DNA of 64,000 nucleotides from Candidatus Melainabacteria bacterium. GTDB lineage: Bacteria; Cyanobacteriota; Vampirovibrionia; 2-02-FULL-35-15. The notes below the pieces were generated by a model, which saw only the letters and a program-made list of their open reading frames with translations, was not told where the DNA came from and made no database searches. This document shows, piece after piece, positions 13,704 through 61,585 of the stretch; position 1 is the first letter of the stretch, and each line of letters begins with the position of its first letter. The stretch covers positions 3,405 to 67,404 of the forward strand of contig JACQBQ010000001.1 of assembly GCA_016201905.1 (NCBI GenBank). Reading direction: 5' to 3'. A program made the position numbers and the translations under genes.

Positions 13704-13799
13704 TGTCATTGCGAGCCCGACTCAGGCGGGCGAAGCAATCCCAAATGTTTTCATATTACAATCTGGACTGCTTCATTGCTTATGCTCCTTGCAGTGACA
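13704..13799. repeat. GC-rich palindromic mini-element, copy 1 (termini TGTCATTGCGAGC...GCAGTGACA), in the convergent intergenic region gatD / M16 peptidase
   Basis: About 60% GC in a ~30% GC background. Shares the CGAAGCAATC module and terminal inverted repeats with the other copies. Confidence 0.7.
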
Positions 13800-13801
13800 A
13801 A

Positions 13802-15076
13802 CTACCCCAGGCTAAACTTTTTAGGCATTTCATTTCTTGGTCCAACTGCTGTAAGTGTGTAATATTTAGAATTAAATATTACATTTGCTAGTTTAATAAT
13901 TCTTTCATTGGTAATTAATTGTACCGAACTATTTATTTCATCTGGTGTTAAAAATCTCTTGTAGTATAAGTCATATAATGCATTTCTCGATGCTCTAACC
14001 ATTGTTGATTCGAGTTCAAGAAATAAGCTGGTTTTTAGTTGCATCTTTGCTCTTTCAAGTTCATCAGGCTTTAGCCCATCTTTTTTAACTGCATTTAACT
14101 CTTTTAAAATAAGCTCTATAACATGGCTTGATTCTTTGGCAGTAGTTCCTGCATAAACCCCAAATAGTCCACCTAATTTATTCGTGTGATAGTAAGAAGA
14201 AATTACATAAGCAAGGCCTCGCTTTTCCCTCACTTCTTGAAAGAGCCTTGAACTCATGCCTCCACCCATTGCAATGTCAATTACAGCCAGCGTATATCTT
14301 TCTTCATCGTAGACTGAAACACCTTTTGTAGCAAAGCTCAGATGGGTTTGTTCAATATCTTTGTCTTTAATGAATATATCTGGAGTTATTATTAATGGCG
14401 GTGCATCTTTCTTTTTGTTTTTGTTATTTATGTTAGAAGTGAGTTTTTCGGTTTTTTGTATAATTGCAGCCAGGTCATATTTACCAGCCAGTGAAATTAT
14501 CATATTATCAGGGGTGTAAAGATCACTTAAAAAATTGAATACTGATTTTTTCTTAAGGTTTGTAATTGATTCTATAGTTCCGGTAATTGGTTTTCCAAGA
14601 GGATGTCCTTTCCATACAACTTCATATAAGAGATCCTGAACAAGATCTTCAGGAGTATCTTCATACATTTTAATTTCTTCTAGGATTACTTGTTTTTCAA
14701 GGTCAAAATCGTTGTCCTGCATTCTTGAATTAAATAACATATCTAAGAAAAGCTCCAGTGCAACTAAAACATGTTCACTTAAGATCCGCGTATGGTAACA
14801 GGTATGTTCTCTGTCAGTAAATGCATTCAGGTTAGCTCCAACATTTTCACTTTGTTCGGCAATCTCTAAAGCAGTTCTTGTTTTTGTACCCTTAAAAATT
14901 ATATGTTCAATAAAGTGTGAAACGCCATTATTACTTACTTCTTCATCAATCGATCCTACGTTAATCCATATACTCAATGTGCATGATAATGCACCTGGAA
15001 TTTCTTCTGAAATTATTCTTAAGCCATTTTCTAAAGTTATTATTTTAGGTGGCTTGTAATTTGCTGAAGTTAACAT
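13802..15076 (-). CDS. M16 family (insulinase/pitrilysin-like) zinc peptidase
   Basis: Inverted zinc motif HFIEHIIFKGT (HxxEH), followed by NAFTDREHTCYH and a C-terminal inactive M16 domain. Confidence 0.85.
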   Translation of the reverse strand: MLTSANYKPPKIITLENGLRIISEEIPGALSCTLSIWINVGSIDEEVSNNGVSHFIEHIIFKGTKTRTALEIAEQSENVGANLNAFTDREHTCYHTRILSEHVLVALELFLDMLFNSRMQDNDFDLEKQVILEEIKMYEDTPEDLVQDLLYEVVWKGHPLGKPITGTIESITNLKKKSVFNFLSDLYTPDNMIISLAGKYDLAAIIQKTEKLTSNINNKNKKKDAPPLIITPDIFIKDKDIEQTHLSFATKGVSVYDEERYTLAVIDIAMGGGMSSRLFQEVREKRGLAYVISSYYHTNKLGGLFGVYAGTTAKESSHVIELILKELNAVKKDGLKPDELERAKMQLKTSLFLELESTMVRASRNALYDLYYKRFLTPDEINSSVQLITNERIIKLANVIFNSKYYTLTAVGPRNEMPKKFSLG

Positions 15077-15137
15077 TGGGGCTTTTGATTTTAGGGTTGC
15101 GATTTATAAGTAGTAATAAAATACTACTCGTAATCTT

Positions 15138-17108
15138 TTATTCCTTTGTTCTTAAAATATGCCAGTTTCTATTTACTGTTACTTTATCTACTGTTGGAGT
15201 AATTGTTACACTAATTTCATCATTAGCGCCATTTTCACATGTGACATTTACTGTAGCTGTATCTGAAACTTCATTGCTAATTAAATTCAGAGCTTCTGCC
15301 TTTGGAACTATCAGCATAAATGTTTTACTGGTCATTGAAGAGCTTAATGAAAACTTTGCTGGTCTGGTTTTTAAATGAGTATTATTTTCGCTTGATGTAA
15401 AAACCTTACATTTGCTGCTAGCTGAAAAATCTGTTGCCATGGCCATTATTGAAGCCTTGTTTGAACCTACTGGCTTTAGAATTATTGAGTCTGGTCCAGA
15501 TAAATTTAATACAGGTATTCCTTGAGAACCTCCCGACACAGTTAGTGCAAGTGTGTAAGGTGTAGTACCACTAAATGCACCCACACCGAGTAAATAAGTG
15601 CCTGCCATGAGTGATTTGGTGATTAATTCATCTACATTCCCTGTTTGACTAGAAGTATCTATAATTTCTGAGGCATTTGAATTAAATAAAACCAGATCAA
15701 GATCATTTCCAGGTGAATCACTTTCAAGAGTTAAAAGAGCATTAATACTTGTTGATTGTGTAAGGGTGAATTTAAAAATATCACTAATTGTAATCATGGC
15801 TCCAGTATCAGAACCAAGCTCTATATCACCTGTATCTGAAGATGAGCAATTGCCTAATATAGAAACTGGTGGAGTAATGACTTGTGCTTGTGCAACTGAA
15901 TCATTGGGCTCTTCTTCGTTTATTAGATTTGGAGATCCTGATGAACTGGTGCTTGAGCTTGAAGCTACGCTTTCTGAAGCAATAATATTTGCATTGCTTA
16001 TTGCCTGTCCTGCATGTACTGTGACAACCTGTGCTTTACTTTGATCAGTGGTAATTGGTAAGTCTGGTCCAGTGTAAAATCCTTTTGGTACAGGGTCTTG
16101 GAATGATTTATCTGTTTTACTTGCTGCAAATGGACCCACGCCTGAGCCTCCAGTGAAAGAAAGATCAATTGGCTCAAGTTCAATCCTATAATCTCCTGGT
16201 GGAACTGCAAATAGAGTATAAGAACCTGATTCGTTATTAAGGTAATCAGATACGGACGAAATTGCTTCTAGTGCGGGGTCATTTATATTTCTTGCAATTA
16301 CATTTGCACCTTGTACTATTGTCATTCCATTTGCTCTAAAAATCTTGCCTTCAATTTTTCCAAATCCTGTAAGTTGACTTTGATTTGGATATAACAATGA
16401 TACTGCTGATGCATCATCACGTCTGATTAAAAATAAATCATTTACAGCAACAGGAAACATTAATGGTACAGTATCTTTTATCGTTTGTGAGGAACCAGGC
16501 TTTATTGCTTCTAAGTTTATTTGTGCGTGGTCTAACCCAATGCCATGGCCAGTTTCATGGATAATAGTACCTTTAAGAGCATCAGGACTTGATTCAGGAT
16601 CAGAAGGTGTATCAATGCCATTTACAAATTTGCCGTTAAAAATTGCTTGAGATTCAGCAATCTGATTAACTAGAGGCCCTGAGCTTACTGTAATAGGTCC
16701 AGAAAGTCCAAGAACAGAATTGCCAGCACCATTTCCTAAGAAAGCATCAAGTAATTTTCCATCGGTGTCAAAAATTACAGGTGTATAACCTAAAAGATCC
16801 TGGGAATTTAATATCGGGTCAAAGTTTTTTTCAGTAACATCAACGTCTAATGAGCCGGGGTTATCACGCTCGAATTTTATTTCACCGGTTGGAACTGCCT
16901 GCCAGGACATATATAAACTTTCGATAATATCAATGGCTTCAGAATTTGAAAATGTTCCAAGTGTACCTTTGTCATATCTGTAAAGAAAAGGCCTTGTACC
17001 ATAAGTAACTGCCATTCCACCTTTTACTACAAGTGGACCACCAGCATATGCATTGCAATAGCTTGTTGCAATAAAAATTAGAATTATAAATAATAATATT
17101 TTCTTCAT
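15138..17108 (-). CDS. Secreted metzincin-type zinc metalloprotease with a carboxypeptidase-regulatory-like domain and a C-terminal PPC (pre-peptidase) domain
   Basis: Signal peptide. HETGHGIGLDH (HExxHxxGxxH) with a downstream Met-turn (LMFP). PPC-type block NEEEPNDSVAQAQ...DTGD...D.FKFTL. Confidence 0.65.
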   Translation of the reverse strand: MKKILLFIILIFIATSYCNAYAGGPLVVKGGMAVTYGTRPFLYRYDKGTLGTFSNSEAIDIIESLYMSWQAVPTGEIKFERDNPGSLDVDVTEKNFDPILNSQDLLGYTPVIFDTDGKLLDAFLGNGAGNSVLGLSGPITVSSGPLVNQIAESQAIFNGKFVNGIDTPSDPESSPDALKGTIIHETGHGIGLDHAQINLEAIKPGSSQTIKDTVPLMFPVAVNDLFLIRRDDASAVSLLYPNQSQLTGFGKIEGKIFRANGMTIVQGANVIARNINDPALEAISSVSDYLNNESGSYTLFAVPPGDYRIELEPIDLSFTGGSGVGPFAASKTDKSFQDPVPKGFYTGPDLPITTDQSKAQVVTVHAGQAISNANIIASESVASSSSTSSSGSPNLINEEEPNDSVAQAQVITPPVSILGNCSSSDTGDIELGSDTGAMITISDIFKFTLTQSTSINALLTLESDSPGNDLDLVLFNSNASEIIDTSSQTGNVDELITKSLMAGTYLLGVGAFSGTTPYTLALTVSGGSQGIPVLNLSGPDSIILKPVGSNKASIMAMATDFSASSKCKVFTSSENNTHLKTRPAKFSLSSSMTSKTFMLIVPKAEALNLISNEVSDTATVNVTCENGANDEISVTITPTVDKVTVNRNWHILRTKE

Positions 17109-17755
17109 TTTTTATTTACCAGATATCTGACTGCTTCAATAAACTCTCTATATCTCATGGACAATCCAAGCTCTGAGCAGCGGTGAACATAGTCATTTAC
17201 GAACTTATTATTTTCAATTGAAATCCTTTTTTGTGTTTTAAGATTTCTGCTTAATCCTTTGTTTCCAAGTCTGTTCCTTACGATCTCTCTTTTTAAAATG
17301 AAACCTTCTTCTAATATTTCAAAATAACCTTGCCCATCTGTGCCAATTGTACTTGTTAAGCCTCTGCTACTTTCAGGATATAAAAAAAGTACATATTTTT
17401 TCCCAATCTCATAACCAACAGATCTTGCAGTTGGCTGCCATTGTTTAAAAGTAATTTCGTTTTGATCATCTACACCTTTTATTCCTTCAGTAATTTTAAA
17501 TGTGTACTTAATCACTGGTAGATGTGATTCCGGATCGTTTTCAATTTCTTCAACGCCTGTACAAATCCCAGCAAAAATTTTTCCTGAGTATTTTATAATC
17601 TCTTCCAGATTCATTGGAATAGCTTCAAATATAAAATGTCTCTCAAGTTTTGGCTTAGATTTTTCAGGCTCATTTCCAAAAGATAAACCACAGTAAGAAA
17701 AGATAAATATAAACGAAATGAATAGTGTTGTTAGAAGTTTATTTATTTTTTTCAA
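17105..17755 (-). CDS. Secreted hypothetical protein, translationally coupled to the downstream metalloprotease
   Basis: 216-aa ORF with an N-terminal signal peptide. Its stop overlaps the protease start (ATGA). Confidence 0.5.
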   Translation of the reverse strand: MKKINKLLTTLFISFIFIFSYCGLSFGNEPEKSKPKLERHFIFEAIPMNLEEIIKYSGKIFAGICTGVEEIENDPESHLPVIKYTFKITEGIKGVDDQNEITFKQWQPTARSVGYEIGKKYVLFLYPESSRGLTSTIGTDGQGYFEILEEGFILKREIVRNRLGNKGLSRNLKTQKRISIENNKFVNDYVHRCSELGLSMRYREFIEAVRYLVNKK

Positions 17756-17901
17756 TTTTAATCTCCAGCAGTTGTAAACAGCTCTTAGGGTATTAATACC
17801 CGGCTCTTTGCTAAAGCTAACTTTTTAATGTAACTTTAAAGTCAAACAAATAAATAGGAGCTAGCCTAAGGTTATTTTGTTCCATATATAATTAAATCTG
17901 T

Positions 17902-20442
17902 ATGGTTACATCTTTTATTTTATATAATCCAAAACAAATTGAAAATAAATGGCAAAAACATTGGGAATCAACTCAGATTTATAAGGCTATTGATTTTGAT
18001 AGTAAACCTAAATACTACTCACTGGTAATGTTTCCATATCCAAGTGGGGATTTGCATATGGGCCATATGAGGGTTTACACGATTAGTGATGTTATCTCAA
18101 GACACAGACGCATGTGTGGTTTCAATGTACTCAATCCAATGGGTTTTGATGCATTTGGATTGCCGGCAGAAAATGCAGCTATTGAAAGAAAAATACCGCC
18201 TGCTGAATGGACACAAAAAAATATTGACTACATGAAAAACCAGCAGTTAAAAAGAATGGGTACAAGCTATGACTGGAGCCGTGAGGTAATTTCATGTAAT
18301 AGTGATTATTACAAATGGACACAGTGGCTATTTTTACAGTTTTATAAAAACAATCTTGCTTATCAGAAAGAAGCTCCGGTGAATTGGTGTACTAAGTGTC
18401 AAACCGTTTTAGCTAATGAACAGGTTGAAGACGGAATGTGCTGGCGTCACGATGATACACCTGTAGAAAGAAAGATGATGCGACAGTGGTTTTTGAAAAT
18501 CACTAATTATGCTGAAGAACTTTTAAGTGATCTTGATAAGTTAACCGGTTGGCCTGAGCGTGTAAAGTTAATGCAAAAAAACTGGATTGGGAAATCACTT
18601 GGAGCTGAAATTGATTTTTTAATAGATGGAAAACCAAATATTAAAATTCCTGTTTACACAACAAGACCTGATACAGCTTTTGGGATTACTTATCTGGTTT
18701 TAGCTCCTGAACATAATCTGGTTGAAAAGCTGTCAGGTGAGCAAAATAAATCAAAGGTTCAAGAGTATATAAAAAAGACAAGTCTATTATCTGAGATTGA
18801 AAGACTAGCAGAAGGAAAAGAAAAAACAGGTGTACCGCTTGGCAGTTTTGCAATAAATCCTTTTAACGGAAAGAAGATCCCTATATGGACTAGTGATTAT
18901 GTTCTTTTAGAGTATGGGACTGGGGCTGTAATGGGTGTGCCTGCTCATGACCAGAGAGATTTTGAATTTGCCAAAAAGTTTAAGCTTGAAATTAAACAAG
19001 TAATTTCACAGGATGGCTTGGAAAGGCAGTTGACAAGTGCTTATACAGATCCTGGAATTATGATTAACTCTGATATTTTTAATGGGCTGAGTAATGAAGA
19101 CGGAAAGAAGAAAATCATTGACCATGCAGAAAAAAATGGTTTTGGCAGGCATAAAGTAACCTATCGTTTGCGTGACTGGTTAATTAGCAGACAAAGATAC
19201 TGGGGATGCCCGATTCCAATTGTTTACTGTGCATCGTGTGGACTTTTGCCTGTAGAGGAAAATAGTCTTCCAGTTCTTTTGCCTGAAGGTGGCATTGAGT
19301 TTGCTGGGAGCGGAGGATCGCCACTTGAAAAATGTACTGAGTGGTTAAGTATTAATTGTCCACAATGCGGACAAAAAGCAAAAAGAGAAACCGACACCAT
19401 GGATACATTTATTTGTTCAAGCTATTATTACCTTCGCTATGCTGATGCAAATAATGACAAAAAAATCTTTGATAAAGAAAAAGTAAACTACTGGCTGCCT
19501 GTGGATCAATATGTAGGTGGAATTGAACATGCTATTTTGCATCTCTTATATTCCAGGTTTTTTACAAAGGCGCTCTACGACTTTGGTCTTTTAACTTTTG
19601 ATGAACCGTTTACAAATCTTCTTAGCCAGGGCATGGTAACGATGCATAGTCCTAAAGAAGGTAAGATTGCCAAAATGTCAAAGTCCAAAGGTAATGTTGT
19701 TGGTACTTCAGAGTTCTTTGATGAGTATGGTGCAGATGCTGCTAGATTATTTATTTTATTTGCAGCACCTCCTGAGCAGGAAGTAGAATGGTCAACACAG
19801 GGTGCTATAGGGCAGTATCGTTTTCTTGAAAGGATCTGGAGGTTATTTTTTAATTTAAAAGAAAACGCCAGCTTGCGAATTGTTGAGGCAATTCATGTAA
19901 AGGTAATTCATGAATTACCTCAACAGGGGCTACCTTTGCGAGACTTATACAGAATTGCAAACTATACTATTAAATCTGTCTCTGAAGATATTTCTGATAA
20001 AAAATATATTTTCAATACAGCTATTGCAAGGATGACTGAACTGGTTAATAATATGTACAAATTTATCCTGGACAAAAAATCTTATACAGATATTGAGTGT
20101 CAGGTATTAAGTTTTTCTTTTACAAATCTCATAAAACTTTTAGCACCATTTGCACCACATATTTCTGAAGAGCTTTGGGAAAAACTTGATGGACAGGATT
20201 CGATTCACAGGCAAAAATGGCCGACTTATGATAAGGAATCTTTAGTTACAGATGAAATAGAACTTGTTATTCAAATGGGTGGCAAAAAAGTTGATGTCCT
20301 TACTACTAAGAAAGGTCAATCGCAAAAAGAGCTTGAAAATATTGCATTGAATCAAGAAAAGGTAAAGGCAAAATTAGAAGGAAAAGAACTTGTAAAAGTT
20401 GTCGTAATTCCTGACAAGATTGTAAATATAGTCGTGAAATGA
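17902..20442 (+). CDS. leuS: Leucine--tRNA ligase
   Basis: HMGH ([11 protein letters not shown]) and KMSKS motifs, zinc-binding cysteines, and class I LeuS architecture along the full length. Confidence 0.95.
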
Positions 20443-20448
20443 CCTGTA

Positions 20449-20474
20449 GGGGCGTGCCAGTGGCGCGCCTTTCT
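20449..20474 (+). terminator. GC-rich hairpin (GGCGTGCC-AGT-GGCGCGCC) followed by TTTC immediately after the leuS stop; possible terminator or attenuator
   Basis: A 7/8-bp GC stem inside an AT-rich context; only a short T-run follows. Confidence 0.3.
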
Positions 20475-20501
20475 AATACATTAAGGAAAAATAGAATAAC
20501 A

Positions 20502-21080
20502 ATGAAAAAGAAAATATCCTTAATTGATTTTGGTGCAGGTAATTTGCACAGTGTTTATAAAGCATTTAAGTTTATTGGTGCTGATATTGAGATTACAAAT
20601 GATTCAAATAAAATTGAAAAATCAGATGCAGTGGTATTTCCTGGTGTTGGTGCATTTGGTGAAGTGATGAAATCAATAAGAAATAATAACCTGGAGGAAA
20701 TAATTGTAAAGTCAGCAAAAAGTTCTAAGCCCTTTCTTGGTATATGTGTAGGGATGCAGGTTTTATTTGAGTGTGGTGAAGAAAATCCTTATGAAAAAGG
20801 ACTCAGTATTTTTAAGGGTAAAGTAATTAAATTTAAGAAAGCAAAAAAGATTCCGCATATTGGATGGAATGATGTAAACGGACAAAAATATTATTTCGTC
20901 CATTCTTATTATGTTTTACCAGAAGATAAAAACATTATTTGTGGAGAAACTGATTATGATGGTGAAAAGTTTACTTCAATGATAAAAAAAGATAATTTGC
21001 TTGCAGTTCAGTTCCATCCCGAAAAGAGTGGGGATGCTGGACTTGAGCTATTAAAGTCATTTATTTTTGATTTGTCTTAA
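20502..21080 (+). CDS. hisH: Class I glutamine amidotransferase, HisH-like (imidazole glycerol phosphate synthase glutaminase subunit family)
   Basis: ISLIDFGAGN, GICVGMQVLFE (catalytic Cys), HIGWN and FHPEKSG motifs. The Met at 20502 with AAGGA upstream is preferred over the ORF-track start at 20439. No hisF or other his genes are nearby. Confidence 0.7.
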   Translation: MKKKISLIDFGAGNLHSVYKAFKFIGADIEITNDSNKIEKSDAVVFPGVGAFGEVMKSIRNNNLEEIIVKSAKSSKPFLGICVGMQVLFECGEENPYEKGLSIFKGKVIKFKKAKKIPHIGWNDVNGQKYYFVHSYYVLPEDKNIICGETDYDGEKFTSMIKKDNLLAVQFHPEKSGDAGLELLKSFIFDLS

Positions 21081-22219: not shown

Positions 22220-22236
22220 GTTCGTTCTTTTAAATC

Positions 22237-22683: not shown

Positions 22684-22685
22684 CT

Positions 22686-23954: not shown

Positions 23955-24036
23955 CTGAGCGAAGAATATTGCGGTGAGCAATATTCTAAGCGTCGGGAAG
24001 GAAAAGGAAAAATCTTGTTCAAAGCGAGATTTTTCC
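23955..24036 (+). promoter_or_regulatory. Conserved two-hairpin element, copy B, in the 5' region of the Na+/Ca2+ exchanger gene
   Basis: GAATATTGC-GGTGA-GCAATATTC ... GGAAAAATCT-TGTTCAAAGCG-AGATTTTTCC; about 90% identical to copy A over 75 nt. One stem position is A-U in one copy and G.U in the other. Confidence 0.5.
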
Positions 24037-24047
24037 GCTTAAAAAAC

Positions 24048-38891: not shown

Positions 38892-39482
38892 ATGCGAATT
38901 TTCCCAGCGTCAATGCTTAAAGGTTTATCAAGTACTTATAAAAATGCACCTGACAGAGTAAATGGATTATTTTTTCTAGCAGTAGAAGCAGGAGATATAA
39001 AAGCAGTTAATAAAATAATTTCTATACCAGGTTTTGATGTTAACAAACCAAAAGATGTTCGTGGACACACAGCTTTAATGAATGCAGCTTTTAATAACTG
39101 TTATAAAATTGTTCAAGCTTTAATTAATAAAGGTGCAAATGTAAATGTAAAAACTGAAGGCCCTGCAGGAGGTTATACAGCGCTTCATGCTGCTATTGAA
39201 GGCAGTGTTCTTGAAGATACAGATGGAAACATAGGTATTATTAATTTACTTTTAAAGCATGGCGCAAATATAAATGGAGGGGATGGGTTTACTCCTTTAA
39301 TGGAAGCAGCAATACAGGCAAATAAAGAGATAGTAGAACTACTTCTCAGTAACGGTGCAGATCCCAATCTTAAGGATAATGAAGGACACACAGCACTTGA
39401 TTTTATAAAAGATGGAAGAGCTCATGGAAATACTCAGTTAATACGAGAACTGACTGATCTGTTAAGTAAAGCAATGAAATAA
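38892..39482 (+). CDS. Ankyrin repeat protein
   Basis: At least 4 ANK repeats (G.TALM.AA..N....V..L...GANVN; GYTALHAAIEGS; GFTPLMEAAIQANKEIVELLLSNGADPN; GHTALDF). Confidence 0.85.
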   Translation: MRIFPASMLKGLSSTYKNAPDRVNGLFFLAVEAGDIKAVNKIISIPGFDVNKPKDVRGHTALMNAAFNNCYKIVQALINKGANVNVKTEGPAGGYTALHAAIEGSVLEDTDGNIGIINLLLKHGANINGGDGFTPLMEAAIQANKEIVELLLSNGADPNLKDNEGHTALDFIKDGRAHGNTQLIRELTDLLSKAMK

Positions 39483-39490: not shown

Positions 39491-39550
39491 TGTCATTCCA
39501 GGCTTGACCTGCAATCCAGTATAGGTACGCTTGTAGAAATGGCATGATCA
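39491..39550. repeat. Possible degenerate remnant of the same element (TGTCATTCC...GGCATGATC)
   Basis: Left terminus resembles TGTCATTGC; weak overall. Confidence 0.2.
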
Positions 39551-39555: not shown

Positions 39556-40641
39556 TTAGTTCTCAGCAACTCTAAGAGCAATAGTTTTTTGTTCGATTTT
39601 CTTTTTAATTTTTGGCAGCATGTTTATTGCTTCTTCTTCGCCTACTTTAATTGCTTTTGCAAGACTTACTTTATCAAGGTTTAATATGCCCACTTCTTTT
39701 AAGTCCGGGCTTATAACAATATCTGCTTTATCCAGAGCTGCCTCTGACTGTGCCCTTAATCCAAGACCAATAACACGGATAATAATGCCTTCAAAAGATC
39801 TAAAGTTTTCTGATTTTATTTCTTCAAGCTTTCTATCGACATCCACAGCAATAACAATATCTGCTCCCATTTTTTTTGCCTCATCAACAGGAATATTTTT
39901 TAAAATCCCGCCATCGACAAGTAGCTGGTTGTTAATCGGAATTGGCTGACGCAGTGTAGGTATTGAAGTGCTTGCCTGAACTGCAAGGCCAACATCCCCG
40001 GATTTTATTACCACTGGCAAGCCACTAATTAAATCAACTGCAATAATGTGTAATGGAATACTTATGTTAATTGTTCCATCTTTTTTTGAAATCAGTTGGT
40101 TTACAAAATGATGTAATCTATGGTCATTATATAAGCCAGCATAAAAAGGTTTTCCTACAATAGTCCGAAATCCTCTATTTAGATAGAGGAAAAATGCTCT
40201 AAAGATAGAAAAATCTGTTTTATATACTTTTGTTATTGCACCTGTTAAAACCTGCTCTTCAATTTCATCTGGACTTAGTCCTCCTGAATATAGTGCTGCA
40301 ATTAAAGCTCCAGCACTAGTACCGACAAGGTAATCAACAGGAATATTTTCTCTTTCAAGAACTCTTAAAACACCAATTTGTGCAGCACCACGTGCGCCAC
40401 CACCGCCCAACGCTAATCCAATCTTTGGTCTTATTACAGAACTATTTTTTGCAAGGGCAGATGAGGTAGTAAAAATGAGTAGAAAGCAAAGAAAAAGAGA
40501 AAAGTTCTTTACGTCATTGCGAGGAGTGAAAAGACGTTGCATGCAACGTCTCCACGGCAATCTCCCAAACGTTAATGAGATTGCTTCGTCGTCCGCCTGG
40601 GCGGACTCCTCGCAATGACGTGTCACATTTTTTTTCTTCAC
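39556..40641 (-). CDS. Patatin-like phospholipase
   Basis: GGGARGAAQIG, GTSAGAL (catalytic Ser) and VDGGILKN (catalytic Asp). The first ~35 codons, including both candidate start ATGs at 40641 and 40542, come from a GC-rich repeat element. Confidence 0.8.
   Translation of the reverse strand: MKKKNVTRHCEESAQADDEAISLTFGRLPWRRCMQRLFTPRNDVKNFSLFLCFLLIFTTSSALAKNSSVIRPKIGLALGGGGARGAAQIGVLRVLERENIPVDYLVGTSAGALIAALYSGGLSPDEIEEQVLTGAITKVYKTDFSIFRAFFLYLNRGFRTIVGKPFYAGLYNDHRLHHFVNQLISKKDGTINISIPLHIIAVDLISGLPVVIKSGDVGLAVQASTSIPTLRQPIPINNQLLVDGGILKNIPVDEAKKMGADIVIAVDVDRKLEEIKSENFRSFEGIIIRVIGLGLRAQSEAALDKADIVISPDLKEVGILNLDKVSLAKAIKVGEEEAINMLPKIKKKIEQKTIALRVAEN
40513..40619. repeat. GC-rich palindromic mini-element, copy 2 (GTCATTGCGAGGAG...CTCCTCGCAATGAC), forming the 5' coding end of the patatin gene
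   Basis: Perfect 14-nt terminal inverted repeats. Internal palindromes GACGTTGCATGCAACGTC and GTCCGCCTGGGCGGAC. Confidence 0.8.
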
Positions 40642-42636: not shown

Positions 42637-42745
42637 ATCGGATTTGAGTGATTTTCCACCTGAGGCGGACCAGCCTTTGGCTGGATTCACCAAATCCGAT
42701 CCTGTGAAAGGGATCGACAGAAGGAAGGTTCAACTTGTTTGAACC
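42637..42745 (+). promoter_or_regulatory. Structured, comparatively GC-rich 5' leader upstream of the PDRP-ppdK operon (nested hairpins)
   Basis: A 10-bp perfect stem ATCGGATTTG/CAAATCCGAT (+4 bp after a bulge) encloses CCAGCC-TTT-GGCTGG. A GGTTCAA-CTTG-TTGAACC hairpin sits 16 nt before the ATG. Confidence 0.35.
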
Positions 42746-48129: not shown

Positions 48130-50280
48130 CTACATAGTTGCACTAGCAACCAATTCACTAATATCTTTTACAGTTGGTGGTTCCCCGCTTTTATCAAGTG
48201 TTCTTGCAGTTTCAAGCATAATAGTACAGAAAGGACATGCGCTTGCAGCTGTCTTTGCACCTGATTCTTTAATTTCATTTAACCTCATAACGTTAATTTG
48301 TTTTCCAGGTGCTTCATACCAGAGCTGTGCTCCACCACCACCACAGCATGTCCCTTTTTCACGAGAGTTTTCCATTTCAATATATTTTAAGCCGGGGATT
48401 TTATTTAAAATGTTTCTTGGAGCATCATATTGACCATTATGACGACCAAGATAACAAGAATCGTGATAAGTTATTTCTTCACTGATTTCCTTTGTCATTG
48501 AGAGCTTTCCTTCTTTTATTAATTCCCATAAGATTTCAGTATGATGAAATACGCTGACATCTTTTAAGCCAAAGTCTGGATATTCATTTTTAAATGTATT
48601 AAAACAGTGGGGACAATGAGTAATAATTTTTTTAACATTTTTGCCTTTAAATATTTCAATATTTTCAATTGCCAGTTCCTGAAAAAGCCCTTCATCGCCA
48701 GCTCTGCGAGCTGTATCACCTGTGCATTTTTCTTTTTTGCCTAAAATTGCAAACTTTACATTTGCTTTTTTAAGTAAACTTACCATTGTCTTTGCAATAT
48801 TTTGATTTCTTGAATCATAAGCTCCAGCACAACCAACCCAGTATAAATATTCAAAGTCACTGGTAGTTTCAATGTTTGGAACATTCAGACCTTCTGTCCA
48901 TTTTTCACGATCTTCTGGTGGCTGCCCCCATGGATTTGAACGTGAACGAATATTTTTTAGGGTATTAAGCAGATTATTTGGTGCTTTATTTTCTGAAATT
49001 AATGACCTTCTTAAATCAATGATTTTTGTTAATTGATCAATTCCAACAGGGCAGGTCTCTACACAAGCTCGACAGGAAGTGCATGACCATAGGGTTTCAG
49101 GAGTAAGTAGATCAGATAAAGTTAGCGTTGTAGTGTCATTGCGAGCCGAAGGCAAAGCAATCTCGCTAACTGTTTCACGTTGTTGAGATTGCTTCGCTCG
49201 CCTCGTCGGAGACGAGTCGGAGCGGGTCGCTGCACTCCTCGCAATGACGCTATTCGGTTTCTCTTCCTGCTTTCCACCTTTAAACCCATGATTGAGAATA
49301 GGTTCCTTATTCATGATTTGCTTCAAATCTAAAATTATCCATTTAGGTGAAAGTGGTTTTTCTGAATTTGTTGCAGGACATACTTCATGACATTTTCCAC
49401 AGGCTGTACATGTGTCCAGATCCATTAAATCTTTCCATGTAAAATCTTCTATCTTTGAAACTGTTTGTGCAAAATCATCTGGTGGATTTTCCATTGCCAT
49501 GATCTCTACTAAGTTAAACGGTGTACTTAAAGCCCCTTTTGGTTTTAAGTCGCTAAAAAATATATTTATTGGTGCTATAAACATATGACTAAACTTTGTA
49601 AATGGAATTAGAGCAATAAATGAAAATGTTTGTATTGAATGAAGCCACCATAAAATGAGATGTAGTGTCTTTTGTGTTTCATAAGAAAATCCTTGAACGC
49701 TATTTGCTATAAGTGCTCCAAGAAATGCATAAGGTTCAATCTGATCTGTTGCTGATTGTCTTAAACCTTCGATTAAAAATCCAAGAACTACAAATAATGC
49801 CAAGTAGACTAATTGAAACCAATCGTTCTGAAAATTATCTAGTCTTTTTGGTTTTACAACATACCTAATAAATGCAAAAAATCCAAGACCAACGAGCATT
49901 AACACGCCAGATAAGTCCATTAAAAAAGAATAGGACTTGTAAAACATGCCATGAAAAAAATATTCAGGCATGCGATCCTGAACTGTAAGTATGTCAGTCC
50001 CTATCCACAAAACAAAAAATCCATAAAAAACTAATATATGTGCAAGGATTGGAAGCTTATCCTTTCCCCAGCCTTTATATAAAAAACTTCTTACAAACAT
50101 GTTTTGAATGCGCTTGCTGAAGTCAGTAAGGTTATTTTTTGGTTTGCCTCTTGCCCAGCTTTTAATTTTTAAATAAAACCCAGAGATAAAAAATATTGCT
50201 GAAATAAAAAATAAAGAATAGAAAATTTCTTTGTAATGAGGCACATCGTGAATATTCCACCATAGACCGCGTGTTTCCAT
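48130..50280 (-). CDS. HdrDE/DsrMK-like membrane-bound Fe-S oxidoreductase: N-terminal NarI-like di-heme b membrane domain fused to two [4Fe-4S] ferredoxin motifs and two CCG cysteine-rich domains
   Basis: 5-6 TM helices with paired His (ILAHILVFYGFF, HLILWWLHSIQT). CTACGKCHEVCP and CTSCRACVETCP motifs. CCG-type clusters (CCGGGG, CPFC, HCPHC). Carries an in-frame 114-nt repeat insertion. Confidence 0.7.
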   Translation of the reverse strand: METRGLWWNIHDVPHYKEIFYSLFFISAIFFISGFYLKIKSWARGKPKNNLTDFSKRIQNMFVRSFLYKGWGKDKLPILAHILVFYGFFVLWIGTDILTVQDRMPEYFFHGMFYKSYSFLMDLSGVLMLVGLGFFAFIRYVVKPKRLDNFQNDWFQLVYLALFVVLGFLIEGLRQSATDQIEPYAFLGALIANSVQGFSYETQKTLHLILWWLHSIQTFSFIALIPFTKFSHMFIAPINIFFSDLKPKGALSTPFNLVEIMAMENPPDDFAQTVSKIEDFTWKDLMDLDTCTACGKCHEVCPATNSEKPLSPKWIILDLKQIMNKEPILNHGFKGGKQEEKPNSVIARSAATRSDSSPTRRAKQSQQRETVSEIALPSARNDTTTLTLSDLLTPETLWSCTSCRACVETCPVGIDQLTKIIDLRRSLISENKAPNNLLNTLKNIRSRSNPWGQPPEDREKWTEGLNVPNIETTSDFEYLYWVGCAGAYDSRNQNIAKTMVSLLKKANVKFAILGKKEKCTGDTARRAGDEGLFQELAIENIEIFKGKNVKKIITHCPHCFNTFKNEYPDFGLKDVSVFHHTEILWELIKEGKLSMTKEISEEITYHDSCYLGRHNGQYDAPRNILNKIPGLKYIEMENSREKGTCCGGGGAQLWYEAPGKQINVMRLNEIKESGAKTAASACPFCTIMLETARTLDKSGEPPTVKDISELVASATM
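49135..49248. repeat. GC-rich palindromic mini-element, copy 3, inserted in-frame (114 nt = 38 codons) in the HdrDE-like gene
   Basis: Termini GTCATTGCGAGC...CCTCGCAATGAC. Internal CTCGTCGGAGACGAG and GCAAAGCAATCTC/GAGATTGCTTCGC. Confidence 0.8.
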
Positions 50281-52511: not shown

Positions 52512-52585
52512 CGCTCCTTGCTCGCCTCTCTACGCGGGTCGCCTTTGGCGAATCTTGCTAGGGGTGGGGAGAGCGGACAATGACA
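52512..52585. repeat. Truncated or degenerate copy of the GC-rich element in the aroQ / 71-aa ORF divergent region
   Basis: Right terminus GGACAATGACA; shares a CCTTTGGC module with copy 6; GC-rich. Confidence 0.45.
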
Positions 52586-52623
52586 TAAAATGTGTTATCT
52601 TATTCTTTCAGGAGGTATTTAAA

Positions 52624-52836: not shown

Positions 52837-52876
52837 GCTTAGACTGGTTTTTGCCTAATGAGCTATAATTTTACTT

Positions 52877-55024: not shown

Positions 55025-55040
55025 TTGTTTTCCTTTAAAG

Positions 55041-56228: not shown

Positions 56229-56240
56229 TTACGGACCTCT

Positions 56241-56660
56241 TTACTGATTCTTGTCATTAAAAAATATTTTACTAGCATACACTAAAGCAATACCAACTGC
56301 CAGATAGATTATCCCTAAAATTGGTCTATCAATAGGACTACGCCTTAAAATCCCACCCATCCCCATCATAAGACCAATTAGAACAAATCCTCTTACACCT
56401 AGTATTTTTATCCAGCCTATTAGTATGTCATTTTTATTAAACTGGATAACATCAGCTCTCTTATAATATTTTAAAGCAATTTTCTGAAGTATAAATCTTC
56501 CTTTTAGCAGGCCCACAGTTACACTTGATGTAATAAAAATAATTAGTTTTATACCAAAGCTTAGTTTTAATAACCAGCTTATCCCGGCAATCGATAATCC
56601 TAAACCTACAAGTAGCCAAATTATTCCAACAATTACCAGACTGGCTTTTTTAGTATTCAT
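56241..56660 (-). CDS. Small polytopic membrane protein (139 aa)
   Basis: 4 TM helices. Preceded by the conserved hairpin element. Confidence 0.5.
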   Translation of the reverse strand: MNTKKASLVIVGIIWLLVGLGLSIAGISWLLKLSFGIKLIIFITSSVTVGLLKGRFILQKIALKYYKRADVIQFNKNDILIGWIKILGVRGFVLIGLMMGMGGILRRSPIDRPILGIIYLAVGIALVYASKIFFNDKNQ

Positions 56661-56667
56661 TTTTTGT

Positions 56668-56700
56668 CAAAAAAATCCTGCTTTGAACAAGATTTTTTCT
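56668..56700 (-). promoter_or_regulatory. Third, partial copy (second hairpin only) ending 8 nt before the start codon of the 139-aa membrane protein
   Basis: Minus strand AGAAAAAATCTTG-TTCAAAG-CAGGATTTTTTT. The loop TTGTTCAAAGC is conserved; the stem is kept by a U.G pair. Confidence 0.4.
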
Positions 56701-57109
56701 TTTCCCTTTACTTATTTTTTTTGTCTACTAACATTAATTTATTATCACGTAAAATATTCATAACAACAAGTAAAATGTTAAAAGATAAAGTTGATGAGAT
56801 AATTTGCTAACAATTGTTGTCGGTATATGTCTTTTTTTTAGAAGATATTTACCTCTTAATCAACTTCCGGCTCCCTTCAAAACGGTACGTAATAAGGTTT
56901 ATAAACCATTCTGAATATAAAATTTTTTTAATCTTTAGCCTTATTATGTGACTTAAGAGCTATTTTCTTATTAATTCTCTCGAAGATTAAATTTTTCTTA
57001 TTTGATTTACTTGTTTAAAGTCTTTTAAATTACCTCTAAAAAAGCTATTATTGTGTCATAAGTAATTTTTACTTATTAAAGATAAAGTTAAGAACAGTTA
57101 AAGGAAAGA

Positions 57110-57418
57110 ATGAGACAAAATCCAAAGAATGAAATTGTAGGTTCAATAAGGGCACTTGACCAAGAGTTAATTGATCGCTTATATAAAGATCTTACTAAAG
57201 AATTATCAGAGTTAATTAAAGAGCTGAATGACTCATCCAAAATAGGTGCATTTGGTGCAATGGCTACCTTATCAACTAAAATTTCAGATATGGCCTCAGA
57301 TTTAAAAAAATTACAGCACTTACCTACTATGCTTACAAATCCTTTTATAATGGCAGACCCAAGAACTATTCTTGATGAAATAAGCAAGAAGTACGGGAAG
57401 AAGAAAAATAAAAAGTAA
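57110..57418 (+). CDS. Hypothetical hydrophilic protein (102 aa)
   Basis: AAGGA upstream of the ATG and balanced composition. Preferred over the overlapping antisense ORF 57088..57429. Confidence 0.45.
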   Translation: MRQNPKNEIVGSIRALDQELIDRLYKDLTKELSELIKELNDSSKIGAFGAMATLSTKISDMASDLKKLQHLPTMLTNPFIMADPRTILDEISKKYGKKKNKK

Positions 57419-57423
57419 AAAAG

Positions 57424-57574
57424 TGTCATTGCCCGGCTCCGCCTCGTCGGAGACGAGGCGAGCGAGGAGCGAAGCGACGAAGCAATCCCGATCGCAATTA
57501 AATCAAGACTTAACTAATAACCATTTTCATAATATTCTTAGTCTGGGACTGCTTTGCCTTTAGCTCGCAGTGAC
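57424..57574. repeat. Composite ~150-nt copy of the GC-rich element (TGTCATTGCCCGG...AGCTCGCAGTGACA) in the convergent region between the 102-aa ORF and pilC
   Basis: Termini match copy 1. It shares CCTCGTCGGAGACGAGG with copy 3 and GAAGCAATCCC with copy 1. The AT-rich middle suggests a two-module arrangement. Confidence 0.6.
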
Positions 57575-57579
57575 AATAA

Positions 57580-58923
57580 TTACTTAATCTGTGATATCAC
57601 AGTAAATATCGGCAAATACATTCCTATAACTATTGCACCGACAAGACCACCAAGTGTAACTATCATAAAAGGCTCCATAAGTGAAGTTAATCCTTCCACT
57701 GCTGTTGCTACTTCTATATCATAAAAGTCAGCTACTTTTTCGAGCATATTTTCAAGCTGACCGGTTTCTTCACCGATGGCTATCATCTGAGTAACCATTT
57801 GGGGAAACAATTTGCTTTCAGACATTGGTCCGCTTATTGTTCCGCCTTCCTGGACCTTTGCCTGAACAGCTTCTACTGCTCTTGCTAAAACTGCATTTCC
57901 AGCAGAATCTTTTACTACTTCAAGTGCAGTTATTATTGGAACTCCGCTTTTAGTAAGTGTTCCAAATGTTCTTGTAAATCTTGCTACAGCAACTTTCCTT
58001 AAAATATCTCCGAGCACTGGCAACTTGAGCATTGTAAAGTCAAGGGTAAACTTACCTTCTTTTGTCTGGTACCAATTTTTTAAAGCCCAAACTGTTCCTA
58101 CTATAATTCCAATCACAGCAAGCATATACCACGATCTTAAAAACTCACTGATTCTAATCAAAAGTCTTGTGTAAGCAGGCAGTTCACTTCCAAGCGAATT
58201 AAATAATCCTGAAAAAGTTGGAAGTACGAGAGTTAACATTGCATAGAAGACACCAACTGCAATAAACATAACAACTACAGGGTATGTCATTGCTGCTTTG
58301 ACTTGCTGTGTAAGGCGGCTGCGCTCTTCCATAAACATTGCTAAACGATTTAAGACTTGATCTAGAACACCGCCTGCTTCTCCAGCTTTAACCATTGAAA
58401 TATACAGGCGATCAAAAATTTTTGGATGTTTGTCAAGTGCATCAGAAAGAGTGCTTCCTTGTTCAATATCGTATCTAACTTGACTCAATGCTTTTTTTAG
58501 TCTTGGGTTTTGAGTTTGCTCAGTCATGACGTTAAGTGCTCTGAGCATTGCAACGCCGGCTTCTACCATTGAAGCAAACTGTCTTGAAAAAATAACCATA
58601 TCTTTTAAAGATATAGGCTGATACTTTGTTAAAAAATCTTCCAGGAAAGGCTTAGCTTTTTTTATTGCAGTTGCACTAGCTGGCTCTTCTATCTCAGTTC
58701 TTGGATCTGAACTTTCAGCTCTTTGTGTTGTAAAAGGCATTGCAGAACCAAAATCTCCCACATCAACTTCTTTTGATTCAGCTGCATCAATTTGTTTTAG
58801 GTCAAGTACCCAAAGTCCTTCTTGCTTTAGTGAAGCTTTTGCTTGATCCGGTGTATCAGCTAAAATGGATGATTCTTTTAGTTCTCCTTTATTGTTTCTT
58901 GCTTTGTATGTAAATGTAGGCAT
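57580..58923 (-). CDS. pilC: Type II secretion / type IV pilus inner-membrane platform protein (GspF/PilC family)
   Basis: Two T2SSF repeats with 3 TM helices and family-wide similarity. No pilB/pilT is adjacent. Confidence 0.85.
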   Translation of the reverse strand: MPTFTYKARNNKGELKESSILADTPDQAKASLKQEGLWVLDLKQIDAAESKEVDVGDFGSAMPFTTQRAESSDPRTEIEEPASATAIKKAKPFLEDFLTKYQPISLKDMVIFSRQFASMVEAGVAMLRALNVMTEQTQNPRLKKALSQVRYDIEQGSTLSDALDKHPKIFDRLYISMVKAGEAGGVLDQVLNRLAMFMEERSRLTQQVKAAMTYPVVVMFIAVGVFYAMLTLVLPTFSGLFNSLGSELPAYTRLLIRISEFLRSWYMLAVIGIIVGTVWALKNWYQTKEGKFTLDFTMLKLPVLGDILRKVAVARFTRTFGTLTKSGVPIITALEVVKDSAGNAVLARAVEAVQAKVQEGGTISGPMSESKLFPQMVTQMIAIGEETGQLENMLEKVADFYDIEVATAVEGLTSLMEPFMIVTLGGLVGAIVIGMYLPIFTVISQIK

Positions 58924-59065
58924 ATAGAAAATTGAGAATTAATAATTGAGAATTAACAATTCACAATTTTGTTCCTTAAGTTATCAATTGTCAATTTTAC
59001 TCTTGTCTTTACTGTAACCTAAGGTTACATAGAAAAGAGATGCAAGATGCTATTATTTCTTTTAA

Positions 59066-61585
59066 ATGAAATACAAATGGCTCATAAGAGAATCAAAAGA
59101 AATTACAAAGGATTTTCTTCATACTGCTTTTGATTCAAGAGTTATTGCCAAGTTACTTTTAAATAGAGGAATTGATTCACCTGAAAAAGCAAAATCTTAT
59201 TTAGAGCCAAAGTTTTATAAAGAATCCAGACCAGAAGAAATCCAGGATCTGATAAAAGCAAAAGATCGAATCATTGAAGCAATAAATAAAAAAGAAAAAA
59301 TTACTATTTTTGGAGATTATGATGTAGATGGTGTTACTTCTACAGCTTGTTTACTAATTGCCCTTAGACAATTTACCGATAACATTGACTTTTATATTCC
59401 AAATAGGCTTACTGAAGGCTATGGATTAAATAATGAAGCAGTTAAAATTATAGCTAAAAAAAATAAAAAGGCTTGCCATGGCAAGCCTTTACTGATTACC
59501 TGTGACTGTGGAATAACAAACCATAAAGAAGTCAAGCTTGCAGGTGAGCTTGGTATGGATGTAATAGTCACTGATCACCATTCTTTACCTGAAGTTTTGC
59601 CCGATGCTTATGCAGTCTTAAATCCAAAACTTTTGCCAGGTGATCATAAACTACACTTTTTGCCCGGAGTAGGCGTTGCTTATAAACTTGCTAAGGCAAT
59701 TTTAGAGGAAAGAAAAGGAGAAGTTTGCAAAGAAGATCTTCTTGATCTTGTAGCACTTGGAATGATTGCTGACCTTGCACCGCTTGTAGATGAAAACAGG
59801 TATTTAGTTCAGATTGGTCTTGAAAAATTAGCAAGAACTGAAAAGATTGGTTTAAGAGAACTGCTTAGGATGTGTGGCTTTACTCCACAGGATAAAAATA
59901 GTCCTACGACAGAACATGTTGGCTTTGGAATTGCACCAAGGATAAATGCTGTAGGCAGGCTTACAGATGCAGCTCTGGCTGTAAGGCTTTTAACTACCTG
60001 TGATTTATTTGAAGCTGTTCAAATAGCTGGTGAACTTGAAAGTCAAAACAGACAGAGACAGTCACTCTGTGAAAGCACATTAAATGAAGCTGTTACGCTT
60101 GTATCTGAGCAGGTAGATTTTAAAAATGATAAATGCATTGTGCTGGCTAAAGATAGCTGGCATCATGGAGTAATTGGGATTGTAGCTTCAAGAGTAGTTG
60201 AAAAATTTAGTTTACCTACTGTTTTAATCGCCATTGATAAAGAACAAAACATAGCGCGAGGTTCAGGGCGCAGCATTGAGAAGTTAAATATTGTAGATGC
60301 TTTAACTAAAAGCTCTAAACATCTTGAGAAATATGGCGGTCATAAAGCTGCATGCGGACTAAGTGTAAAACCTGAGTTTGTTAATGATTTTATTTTTGAT
60401 TTTAAAGACAATGTAAATAAAATGCTTGACAATCAGAATTTAGAACCTGTTTTAAAGATTGATATGGAATTACCGCTTTCAGCTTTAGTTATGGATTTAA
60501 TGAATAAAGTAAATAAATTATCGCCTTTTGGTTTAGGAAATCCTATGTCAATTTTTACAAGCGATGAAATTGAAATAATTGGCATTAAAAATATTGGTAA
60601 AAACGGCCAGCATTTGAAGCTGACCTTAAGAACTTTGGATAGTGTCATTGCGAGGAGCAAAGAGACGTTGCATGCAACGTCTCCACAGCAATCTCAACAA
60701 CATGAAGAAGTGATCGAGATTGCTTCGCCTTTGGCTCGGAATGATGTGAAGCAGTTTGAAGCTCTAATCTGGAATCATAATGTTAATTTGCGATTTAATT
60801 TAGGAGATCAAATAAAAATCGCCTACACGCCAAAGTTAAATAATTACAATGGTGAGACATTTATACAGCTGGAAGTAAAAGACTGGCAGATCTTAAATGA
60901 TAAGAGTTTAGAAAATAAGAAAATTAAAAAAGAAGAAAAAGAAATTGAAATTTATGATTTTAGAGACAAAACACAAGAATTGTTAAGTATTCTTTCCTCA
61001 AGGCTTGATTCTGTAACCTGTTTTGCTGAGATTGAGCAAAAAAATCATTTAGATCTAAAAACCTTTTCAAGAAACAAAATTAAAAAAGCTGAAAGCCTTG
61101 TTTTTTTGGAAATCCCTCCTGACGAGTTTGTCTTTTTAGATATAATAAAACGCTCATGTGCTAAAAAGATTTACTTTGCATTTACCCAGCATCAAAATAA
61201 CTTAGAACCCCAGAATTTATTAAAAAGACTCATTGGTATGCTTAAATATGCAGTAAGCAATAAAAACTCAATCATAAACGAAACGGAGCTCCAGTCAGCT
61301 TTAGGTATAAATAGAACATCACTGGCTTATGCACTGGAAATACTTGTAAAGATAGGACTCTTATCGTATGAAAAGACAAACGGTGAATTAAATATCAATC
61401 TTTTAACTCCTGCTCGACAGAATTTCCTAGAGTTAATAGAATATAACCTGCTGGTTTCAGAGTTAAAACAAATTTTAGATTTTAAGAACTGGCTTTGTGA
61501 ATCTGATATTCTGCAAATAGAAAAGATGTTGAATGAACACAATATTTTGGCAAAGTTTATTTCTTATGAATCAATAAAGGTATAG
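59066..61585 (+). CDS. recJ: Single-stranded-DNA-specific exonuclease RecJ with a ~280-aa C-terminal extension
   Basis: DHH motifs (GDYDVDGVTS, TDHHS), the DHHA1 domain, and an OB-fold region carrying an in-frame GC-rich repeat insertion. Confidence 0.85.
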   Translation: MKYKWLIRESKEITKDFLHTAFDSRVIAKLLLNRGIDSPEKAKSYLEPKFYKESRPEEIQDLIKAKDRIIEAINKKEKITIFGDYDVDGVTSTACLLIALRQFTDNIDFYIPNRLTEGYGLNNEAVKIIAKKNKKACHGKPLLITCDCGITNHKEVKLAGELGMDVIVTDHHSLPEVLPDAYAVLNPKLLPGDHKLHFLPGVGVAYKLAKAILEERKGEVCKEDLLDLVALGMIADLAPLVDENRYLVQIGLEKLARTEKIGLRELLRMCGFTPQDKNSPTTEHVGFGIAPRINAVGRLTDAALAVRLLTTCDLFEAVQIAGELESQNRQRQSLCESTLNEAVTLVSEQVDFKNDKCIVLAKDSWHHGVIGIVASRVVEKFSLPTVLIAIDKEQNIARGSGRSIEKLNIVDALTKSSKHLEKYGGHKAACGLSVKPEFVNDFIFDFKDNVNKMLDNQNLEPVLKIDMELPLSALVMDLMNKVNKLSPFGLGNPMSIFTSDEIEIIGIKNIGKNGQHLKLTLRTLDSVIARSKETLHATSPQQSQQHEEVIEIASPLARNDVKQFEALIWNHNVNLRFNLGDQIKIAYTPKLNNYNGETFIQLEVKDWQILNDKSLENKKIKKEEKEIEIYDFRDKTQELLSILSSRLDSVTCFAEIEQKNHLDLKTFSRNKIKKAESLVFLEIPPDEFVFLDIIKRSCAKKIYFAFTQHQNNLEPQNLLKRLIGMLKYAVSNKNSIINETELQSALGINRTSLAYALEILVKIGLLSYEKTNGELNINLLTPARQNFLELIEYNLLVSELKQILDFKNWLCESDILQIEKMLNEHNILAKFISYESIKV
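60644..60746. repeat. GC-rich palindromic mini-element, copy 6 (near-identical 5' half to copy 2), inserted in-frame in recJ
   Basis: GTCATTGCGAGGAGCAAAGAGACGTTGCATGCAACGTCTCCAC...GAGATTGCTTCG...CTCGGAATGATG. Confidence 0.75.

Follow-up and report, generated by a model that had tools for sequence, protein, structure and literature searches.

GC-rich palindromic elements resembling CGTC-tagged REP repeats between and within genes of a Candidatus Melainabacteria bacterium

In this study we focus on a family of short palindromic elements scattered through a 64,000-nucleotide stretch of DNA from a Candidatus Melainabacteria bacterium (contig JACQBQ010000001.1, positions 3,405 to 67,404 of the forward strand), hereafter called the window. 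Five copies of 90-150 nt are found there: two between convergent genes, one at the 5' end of a patatin-like phospholipase gene, and two in frame inside recJ and the gene of a membrane-anchored Fe-S oxidoreductase (Table 1). Each element consists of two units in inverted orientation, similar to repetitive extragenic palindromic (REP) sequences, with their tags pointing outward and a variable spacer between them. The same element of about 100 nt occurs across many phyla, so the family is not specific to this lineage.

Copies 1, 2, 3, 5 and 6 were recovered with E-values of about 1e-9 to 3e-15 by a profile hidden Markov model (HMM) trained solely on 126 elements from unrelated bacteria and other phyla, and beyond these five the profile found nothing above noise in the window. 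The terminal box GTCATTGCGAG, with at most one mismatch, occurs 8 times in the window against 0.36 expected, a count attained by none of 100 shuffled sequences, and the closest pair of copies shares 86% identity over 58-63 nt. An earlier note on this DNA, made from its letters alone, had listed at least six copies and a possible remnant at 39491-39550; the sequences it described are present at all seven stretches. Its fourth copy, however, has no profile match, lacks a left terminus, folds no better than shuffled sequences (z = -1.1) and has only the short modules CGCCTTTGGCG and CAATGACA in common with the others; it can at best be called a degraded fragment. The supposed remnant proved to be a related unit confined to 39491-39522, a single unit of a sister subfamily (TGTC-ATTCCAGG-CTTGA-CCTGCAAT-CCAG, 32 nt) located just 3' of the stop codon of the gene at 38892-39482. 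The copies contain 48-62% GC (mean about 53%) and the window as a whole 33.8%, figures that replace the earlier estimate of about 60% against a background of about 30%.

The elements are bounded by terminal inverted repeats of 11-14 nt, and several copies start with TG and finish with CA. Copy 2 has two perfect termini with CGTC tags, together with the side hairpins GACGTTGCATGCAACGTC and GTCCGCCTGGGCGGAC, while copies 1, 3, 5 and 6 carry TGTC tags. The right terminus is degraded in copy 1 (CTTGCAGTGACA) and in copy 6 (CTCGGAATGAT), and the spacer of copy 5 is long and AT-rich.

Table 1. Positions of the palindromic elements, related units and host genes in the window (E, profile HMM E-value unless a model is named; z, folding score against shuffled sequences).
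Feature	Positions	Strand	Location or description	Score
Copy 1	13704..13799		intergenic	E = 2e-11, z = -2.95
Copy 2, best preserved	40513..40619		5' end of patatin-like gene	E = 3e-15, z = -8.3
Copy 3	49135..49248		in frame in Fe-S oxidoreductase gene	E = 6e-15, z = -4.7
Copy 4, doubtful degraded or rearranged fragment	52512..52585			no profile match, z = -1.1
Copy 5	57424..57574		intergenic	E = 1e-9, z = -2.8
Copy 6	60644..60746		in frame inside recJ	E = 4e-10
GC-rich hairpin CCGGCTCCGCCTCGTCGGAGACGAGGCGAGC, 29 nt	57433..57461		inside copy 5, nested in its left terminal box	
Single classic CGTC-type REP unit, sister subfamily	39491..39522	+	intergenic	
recJ host gene, 839 aa	59066..61585	+	TIGR00644	E = 4e-158 (TIGR00644)
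Membrane-anchored Fe-S oxidoreductase gene, 716 aa	48130..50280	-	related to HdrD/GlpC/TfrB	
Patatin-like phospholipase host gene	39556..40641	-		

The anatomy of the window copies was compared with that of 127 elements fetched from other genomes. The unit follows the plan YGTC-ATTGC-GAG-(variable mini-hairpin)-(C)GAA-GCAAT-CYN, in which the internal loop GAG/(C)GAA breaks a 5-bp stem (ATTGC/GCAAT) and is followed by a GC-rich mini-hairpin that varies and whose loop is often GAAG or GTAG; a spacer of about 10-50 nt separates the two halves. Among the 127 elements, position -1 is C or T in 95% (C in 75, T in 46), and position +1 mirrors it with G or A in 95%. GCAAT, the inner box, is found in 234 of 254 half-sites (92%) as well as in all window copies. 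The tail that follows it is CCA in 80, CTC in 75 and CCC in 23 of those 234 half-sites, and CTC or CCC in the window. The variable middles are more prone to form hairpins than shuffled sequences, 37% of them having a z-score below -1.64. Folded as single strands, the window copies adopt a long hairpin with an outer stem, an inner stem and side hairpins, with z-scores of -2.7 to -3.0 for copies 1, 5 and 6, -4.7 for copy 3 and down to -8.3 for copy 2, in line with the palindromic character first ascribed to them. Shared internal modules had been described as reshuffled; they are indeed present, but each half holds them at one defined position, as mini-hairpins that vary or are nested, and not as freely shuffled pieces.

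The mini-hairpin AGACGTTGCATGCAACGTCT is found in copies 2 and 6 and stands alone inside recJ of relatives, while the module nested in copy 5 recurs in the right arm of copy 3 (49194-49226). The presence of mini-hairpins within copies 2, 5 and 6, and alone in relatives, indicates that small palindromes nest within larger ones. A 20-nt palindrome, AGACGTTG(CATG/TACA)CAACGTCT, is nested at 40532-40551 in copy 2 and at 60663-60682 in copy 6, and is solitary and in frame in the recJ genes of two related loci (L198:2848 and L199:10927). Peptides of the 'RDAINRVST' type in the RecJ orthologues P0004, P0005, P0008 and P0010 apparently belong to the same mini-palindrome class.

Two to three of the five copies lie within coding sequence. 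Copy 6 encodes RecJ residues 527-561 (SVIARSKETLHATSPQQSQQHEEVIEIASPLARND), in a loop between two strands of the oligonucleotide/oligosaccharide-binding (OB) fold domain. The AlphaFold model of this RecJ contains one long segment with a predicted local distance difference test (pLDDT) score below 50, residues 526-560, which coincides with copy 6, and in an alignment of 21 RecJ orthologues this position is hypervariable in length. Copy 3 lies between two 4Fe-4S cysteine motifs of the oxidoreductase and encodes SVIARSAATRSDSSPTRRAKQSQQRETVSEIALPSARND. Copy 2 overlaps the N-terminal 40 or so codons of the patatin-like gene. As there is no ATG, GTG or TTG between copy 2 and the signal-peptide core of the protein, the start must lie within or upstream of copy 2; the minus strand at 40540-40560 reads GGAGA-N6-ATG, the sole canonical start upstream of the core besides a GTG at 40641. 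Copy 2 may therefore supply the translation start of this gene.

Since three copies overlap open reading frames (ORFs) and keep the frames open, the shared peptide (VIARS...ARND) could be imagined to be a module selected at the protein level, unless the repeats are artefacts of assembly or contamination. Two observations refute the first idea: different proteins use differing frames of the same DNA (VIARS, RHCEE, SLRG), and other copies lie between genes. Moreover, the peptide is predicted to be disordered and has no Pfam or NCBIfam match. The second is contradicted by the presence of the element in complete isolate chromosomes such as those of Bradyrhizobium. Either explanation is hardly credible.

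The remaining copies sit exactly between convergent genes, copy 1 between 12972-13700 (+, GATase_3) and 13802-15076 (-, peptidase M16), and copy 5 between 57110-57418 (+) and 57580-58923 (-, T2SSF); the mix of intergenic and intragenic locations had been remarked on from the start. Such positions, the strong constraint on the arms in every host, and a preference for sites 3' of genes reported in a study of CGTC-tagged REPs (PMC3733652) would suit hairpins selected by the host as cis-acting structures, whether terminators or attenuators, stabilisers of mRNA 3' ends, or gyrase or nucleoid-protein sites, as proposed for Escherichia coli REPs. However, no element is followed by a T-run and a terminator scan picked up none of them, and a terminator would be harmful within coding sequence, where two to three of the copies reside. 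The sites are also empty in syntenic relatives, and the distribution among genomes is patchy (PMC3733652). We thus find a host-selected cis-acting role unlikely.

Insertion polymorphism, independent recurrent insertions and decay by internal deletion are all seen among the relatives. The closest database relatives of the window RecJ are 57-66% identical to it, the named ones being 'Candidatus Melainabacteria bacterium' and, more distant, Obscuribacterales; a look-up for a protein identical to it gave no record. We compared the contigs that carry the closest RecJ relatives and are syntenic with window positions 49-64 kb. In the syntenic locus L121 no element occupies the sites at which copies 4, 5 and 6 lie in the window: the intergenic spacer at copy 4 measures 52 bp against 130 bp in the window, that at copy 5 measures 8 bp against 161 bp, and copy 6 is missing from recJ. 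Copy 3 is absent by sequence from the L199 orthologue, and the Fe-S protein has 675 aa in L121 and 680 aa in L199, about 40 residues fewer than the 716 aa of the window protein. Complete elements with perfect termini are present in recJ orthologues at L123:10683-10768, L197:2439-2537, L197:3463-3557 and from L198:3596 onward, in two permissive loops and in differing reading frames. The L198 and window insertions in recJ have both junctions in common (AGT before the element, GTRAAR after it). Exactly where the window and L198 have the full recJ element, L199, which is closely related to L198, retains an in-frame footprint of 18 nt, GTAATTGCGAGGGGTGAC (L199:11672-11692); the comparison of this footprint with the whole L198 element indicates decay by internal deletion.

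Two further features were noted around recJ. Its first hot spot holds, in L198 (2546-2650) and L199 (10649-10718), an in-frame dimer of classic CGTC REP units, TGTC-ATTCCCGA-CTTGA-TCGGGAAT-CCA, with the same CTTGA loop as the window unit at 39491. A large serine recombinase gene (558 aa) is located about 8-10 kb downstream of recJ in L123 (22035-22619) and L124 (20704-22380), a position that falls outside the region covered by the window.

The range of the family was scanned in one genome per species, using both terminal boxes 65-95 nt apart. The element was found in at least 120 genome stretches from at least 9 phyla. Among the matches listed are Alpha- and Gammaproteobacteria (with many Bradyrhizobium), Bacteroidota, Chloroflexota, Patescibacteria, Desulfobacterota, Planctomycetota and Clostridia, as well as Legionellales, the rickettsial genus Tisiphia and a 'Caenarcanales' melainabacterium. 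The inner box, absent from the query, is present in every one of these stretches. Furthermore, the boxes YGTCATTGCGAG and GAAGCAATC are identical from Patescibacteria to Bradyrhizobium to Melainabacteria, and two melainabacterial loci, L050 and L198, have an identical right arm. Carriers in the Rickettsiaceae comprise two Tisiphia loci (L036 and L071) and a Torix-group Rickettsia protein (P0122) that contains the element peptide. When a Tisiphia element peptide was used in a protein search, the sole matches were the peptide and one protein of a Torix-group Rickettsia; both are annotated as 'hypothetical protein', and neither is labelled as a Rickettsia palindromic element (RPE).

In a plasmid collection, a Bradyrhizobium copy matched only 4 Methylocystis/Methylosinus plasmids and a Tisiphia copy had no match; the family is essentially chromosomal. 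Among 2.9 million viral contigs, 71 stretches carry the element, which is thus rare there and may belong to host flanks. Three viral contigs (L176:8876-9731, L181:692-1580 and L191:6116-6502) have box pairs around 0.4-0.9 kb with small ORFs, encoding a membrane protein and a helix-turn-helix protein, with no transposase seen; these are elements with enlarged or interrupted loops.

The GC content of the spacer correlates with that of the host (r = 0.67, p = 6e-10), whereas the arms remain at 63-71% GC in hosts spanning 33-70% GC. Taken with the broad range, these two properties make the elements look like long-term residents and not recent imports, and the arms look as if they were maintained by selection for whatever recognises them.

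The absence of a transposase and of an obvious target-site duplication, both proposed in the earlier note, was borne out. Pfam searches of the window ORFs of at least 100 aa revealed no transposase, integrase or HUH domain. No target-site duplication accompanies the window copies, and in the 127 elements elsewhere direct repeats of 2-8 nt are as frequent as chance predicts. In 120 element loci no neighbouring protein family recurs beyond housekeeping ones. Orphan terminal-box pairs 0.3-4.5 kb apart yielded a few enlarged-loop elements with small ORFs, without a transposase.

[quoted passage not shown] They are nevertheless a very improbable identity for this family: duplications of 2-8 nt are at chance level, none of 196 fetched loci holds a longer element with the same ends (YGTCATTGCGAG) and a transposase, and the symmetry of the unit, like its conserved inner box, is that of REPs and not of IS ends.

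A doublet hairpin with a variable spacer, an unpaired 4-nt tag at the stem and no target-site duplication make up exactly the REPIN and IS200/IS605 pattern. Strict REPINs are REP doublets copied by a single-copy RAYT (REP-associated tyrosine transposase, a Y1 HUH enzyme) encoded elsewhere in the same genome, and Y1 subclasses are common in Cyanobacteria (PMC6006769). Against this, the tag is YGTC and not GTAG, no Y1 gene is found within the window or the sister loci, and REPIN populations are genome-specific while the boxes described here are identical across phyla. In addition, CGTC repeats were never seen flanking Y1 genes (PMC3733652), and such genes are largely missing in Alphaproteobacteria and Rickettsiales (PMC6006769). 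For these last two reasons we do not assign a RAYT-type mobiliser, and it is improbable that the copies are REPINs in the strict sense.

Searches for known families were also negative. Rfam gave no match in the window at gathering score, and only chance-level matches in six element-bearing loci with an E-value threshold; a scan for tRNA and tmRNA genes found none. The element peptides matched neither Pfam nor NCBIfam, and 13 distinct peptides, taken from the open reading frames of the window, Tisiphia and Bradyrhizobium copies, had no match to the RPE1 model (NCBIfam TIGR01045) at E-values up to 10. The family is not RPE-1. Literature searches on the box sequences and on palindromic elements in Melainabacteria returned nothing relevant. 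attC sites, dif sites and ribozyme cores were considered and dropped, their conserved motifs being absent on inspection.

The copies are probably a selfish, non-autonomous palindromic DNA element. According to this explanation, copies would be added at scattered genome sites without target duplication and would persist in intergenic DNA, and inside genes they would survive only where their GC-rich, largely stop-free sequence falls in frame in a surface loop, to be translated there as an extra peptide (VIARS...ARND, RHCEE...PRND, SLRG...LAMT). By analogy with REP/RAYT and IS200/IS605 systems, insertion could proceed via a folded single-stranded DNA intermediate, with the tag and ATTGC stem recognised by a trans-acting nuclease or recombinase encoded elsewhere. 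RPE-like, non-autonomous palindromic elements had in fact been the original suggestion, and it is supported in all its testable parts by a repeated, palindromic sequence that sits in frame in conserved genes at sites empty in syntenic relatives (copies 4, 5 and 6 in L121, copy 3 in L199).

Several observations weigh against this explanation. The window has no near-identical copies, hence no sign of recent activity in this genome. The recJ insertions of the window and of L198/L199 share junctions and could stem from one ancient event instead of repeated insertion. The closest relatives have about 66% RecJ identity and about 65-70% DNA identity; the insertions are visible when filled and empty sites are aligned as DNA, but at this distance their junctions are not readable to the base. 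Translation of the intragenic copies is something we infer from their intact reading frames. Neither a transposition event nor a mobilising enzyme was seen in the loci examined, and a Y1/HUH enzyme is doubtful, as Alphaproteobacteria, including the CGTC-rich Rickettsiales, have few or no Y1 transposase genes (PMC6006769).

We also put forward, tentatively and as a possibility less likely than the selfish nature of the element, that the ~100-nt sequence is the substrate of an undiscovered, highly conserved mobilising activity. This could be a new family of single-stranded DNA nucleases or recombinases, or a housekeeping enzyme exploited by the element; if so, the family would represent an orphan pan-bacterial mobile element.

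Other features of the window are unrelated to this family. A second, AT-rich repeat family is present at 12515-12604, 23958-24046 and 56660-56705, two of its copies sharing 62 nt at 92% identity; its core, GGAAAAGGAAAAATCTTGTTCAAAGCGAGATTTTTCC, contains a hairpin and has no Rfam match, and two copies lie just upstream of the starts of a Na/Ca exchanger gene and of a small membrane ORF. A GC-rich intergenic stretch at 42650-42745, upstream of a pyruvate-phosphate-dikinase regulator gene, holds three successive hairpins, CCAGCCTTTGGCTGG, GATCCTGTGAAAGGGATC and GGTTCAACTTGTTTGAACC. It is not a member of the family and has no Rfam match, and it may be a structured leader or a small RNA. Two long ORFs, 6034-10365 (1443 aa) and 15138-17108 (656 aa), have no Pfam match at E-values up to 1e-5, the second having an HExxH-like motif, HETGHGIGLDH. 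Finally, two adjoining genes at 1793-4691 encode proteins with FG-GAP/VCBS-type repeats, whose DYDGDG repeats dominate the direct-repeat list.

In-frame 'protein-coding palindromes' have long been seen as a peculiarity of Rickettsia. Our work places them also in a Melainabacteria-related, free-standing lineage, where the genes hit are of the same kinds (DNA repair and redox enzymes) and are hit at permissive loops. Since the boxes are invariant in distant phyla and come with no known transposase, the mobility of CGTC-type repeats can be approached in practice from this window and from carriers that can be cultured, among them Bradyrhizobium and Mucilaginibacter. For annotation the elements are a hazard, as they generate spurious small ORFs and N-terminal extensions; they are also useful as insertion-polymorphism markers in metagenome-assembled genomes.

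GC-rich palindromic mini-elements in very AT-rich genomes include the mobile GC clusters of yeast mitochondria and the double-hairpin elements of fungal mitochondria. These too are sometimes in frame within genes, but they reside in organelles and have no sequence relationship with the family described here. With REPIN/RAYT systems (Bertels & Rainey 2011, via PMC6006769) the elements have in common a REP doublet in a long hairpin, a variable spacer and the lack of target-site duplication. They differ by a YGTC tag in place of GTAG, by the absence of a RAYT from the window and sister loci, and by a sequence that is conserved across phyla and not genome-specific.

The elements behave as RPEs do. 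RPEs (Ogata et al. 2000, 2002; summarised in PMC10969869) are repeats found in an AT-rich genome; they are palindromic, measure 100-150 bp, frequently insert in frame in conserved genes, add surface peptides to the products and have no transposase. The recJ and Fe-S oxidoreductase insertions, absent from orthologues, behave likewise, and this element type is present in the Rickettsiaceae (Tisiphia and Torix-group Rickettsia). In contrast, the peptides match neither the RPE-1 model nor other NCBIfam or Pfam models, the host is Melainabacteria-like and not Rickettsia, and the family is pan-bacterial.

Among described groups, the elements fit the CGTC-tagged REP superfamily of Di Nocera, De Gregorio & Rocco (2013, PMC3733652), which includes Neisseria dRS3 and Rickettsia RPE-4 and RPE-6, these last two being equated with CGTC-4 and CGTC-1, and is described as having no known transposase. 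They share with this superfamily a tag that is left unpaired at the 5' end (CGTC or TGTC, the superfamily also admitting CCTC), a stem with AT(T) at its start and A-T pairs at its first two positions, a short tail of about 3 nt (CCA or CYN), and inverted unit pairs able to fold as one large hairpin, all five window copies being such dimers; dimer spacers in the superfamily measure 20-100 nt. Further points in common are in-frame intragenic copies, often in replication and repair genes, a distribution strongest in Alphaproteobacteria yet extending to distant phyla, and the lack of a linked transposase. CGTC-1 to CGTC-4 are defined there by an uninterrupted 8-9-bp stem with a 4-5-nt loop, whereas our unit combines a stem of 5 bp with a conserved internal loop, GAG/(C)GAA, and a second hairpin that varies. 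The classic definition is matched solely by the unit at 39491-39522, whose 8-bp stem contains one mismatch and whose loop is 5 nt long. Melainabacteria do not figure among the hosts listed in the sections of that study consulted. Thus the kind of element is already known, and what is new here is its host lineage and a somewhat atypical unit architecture.

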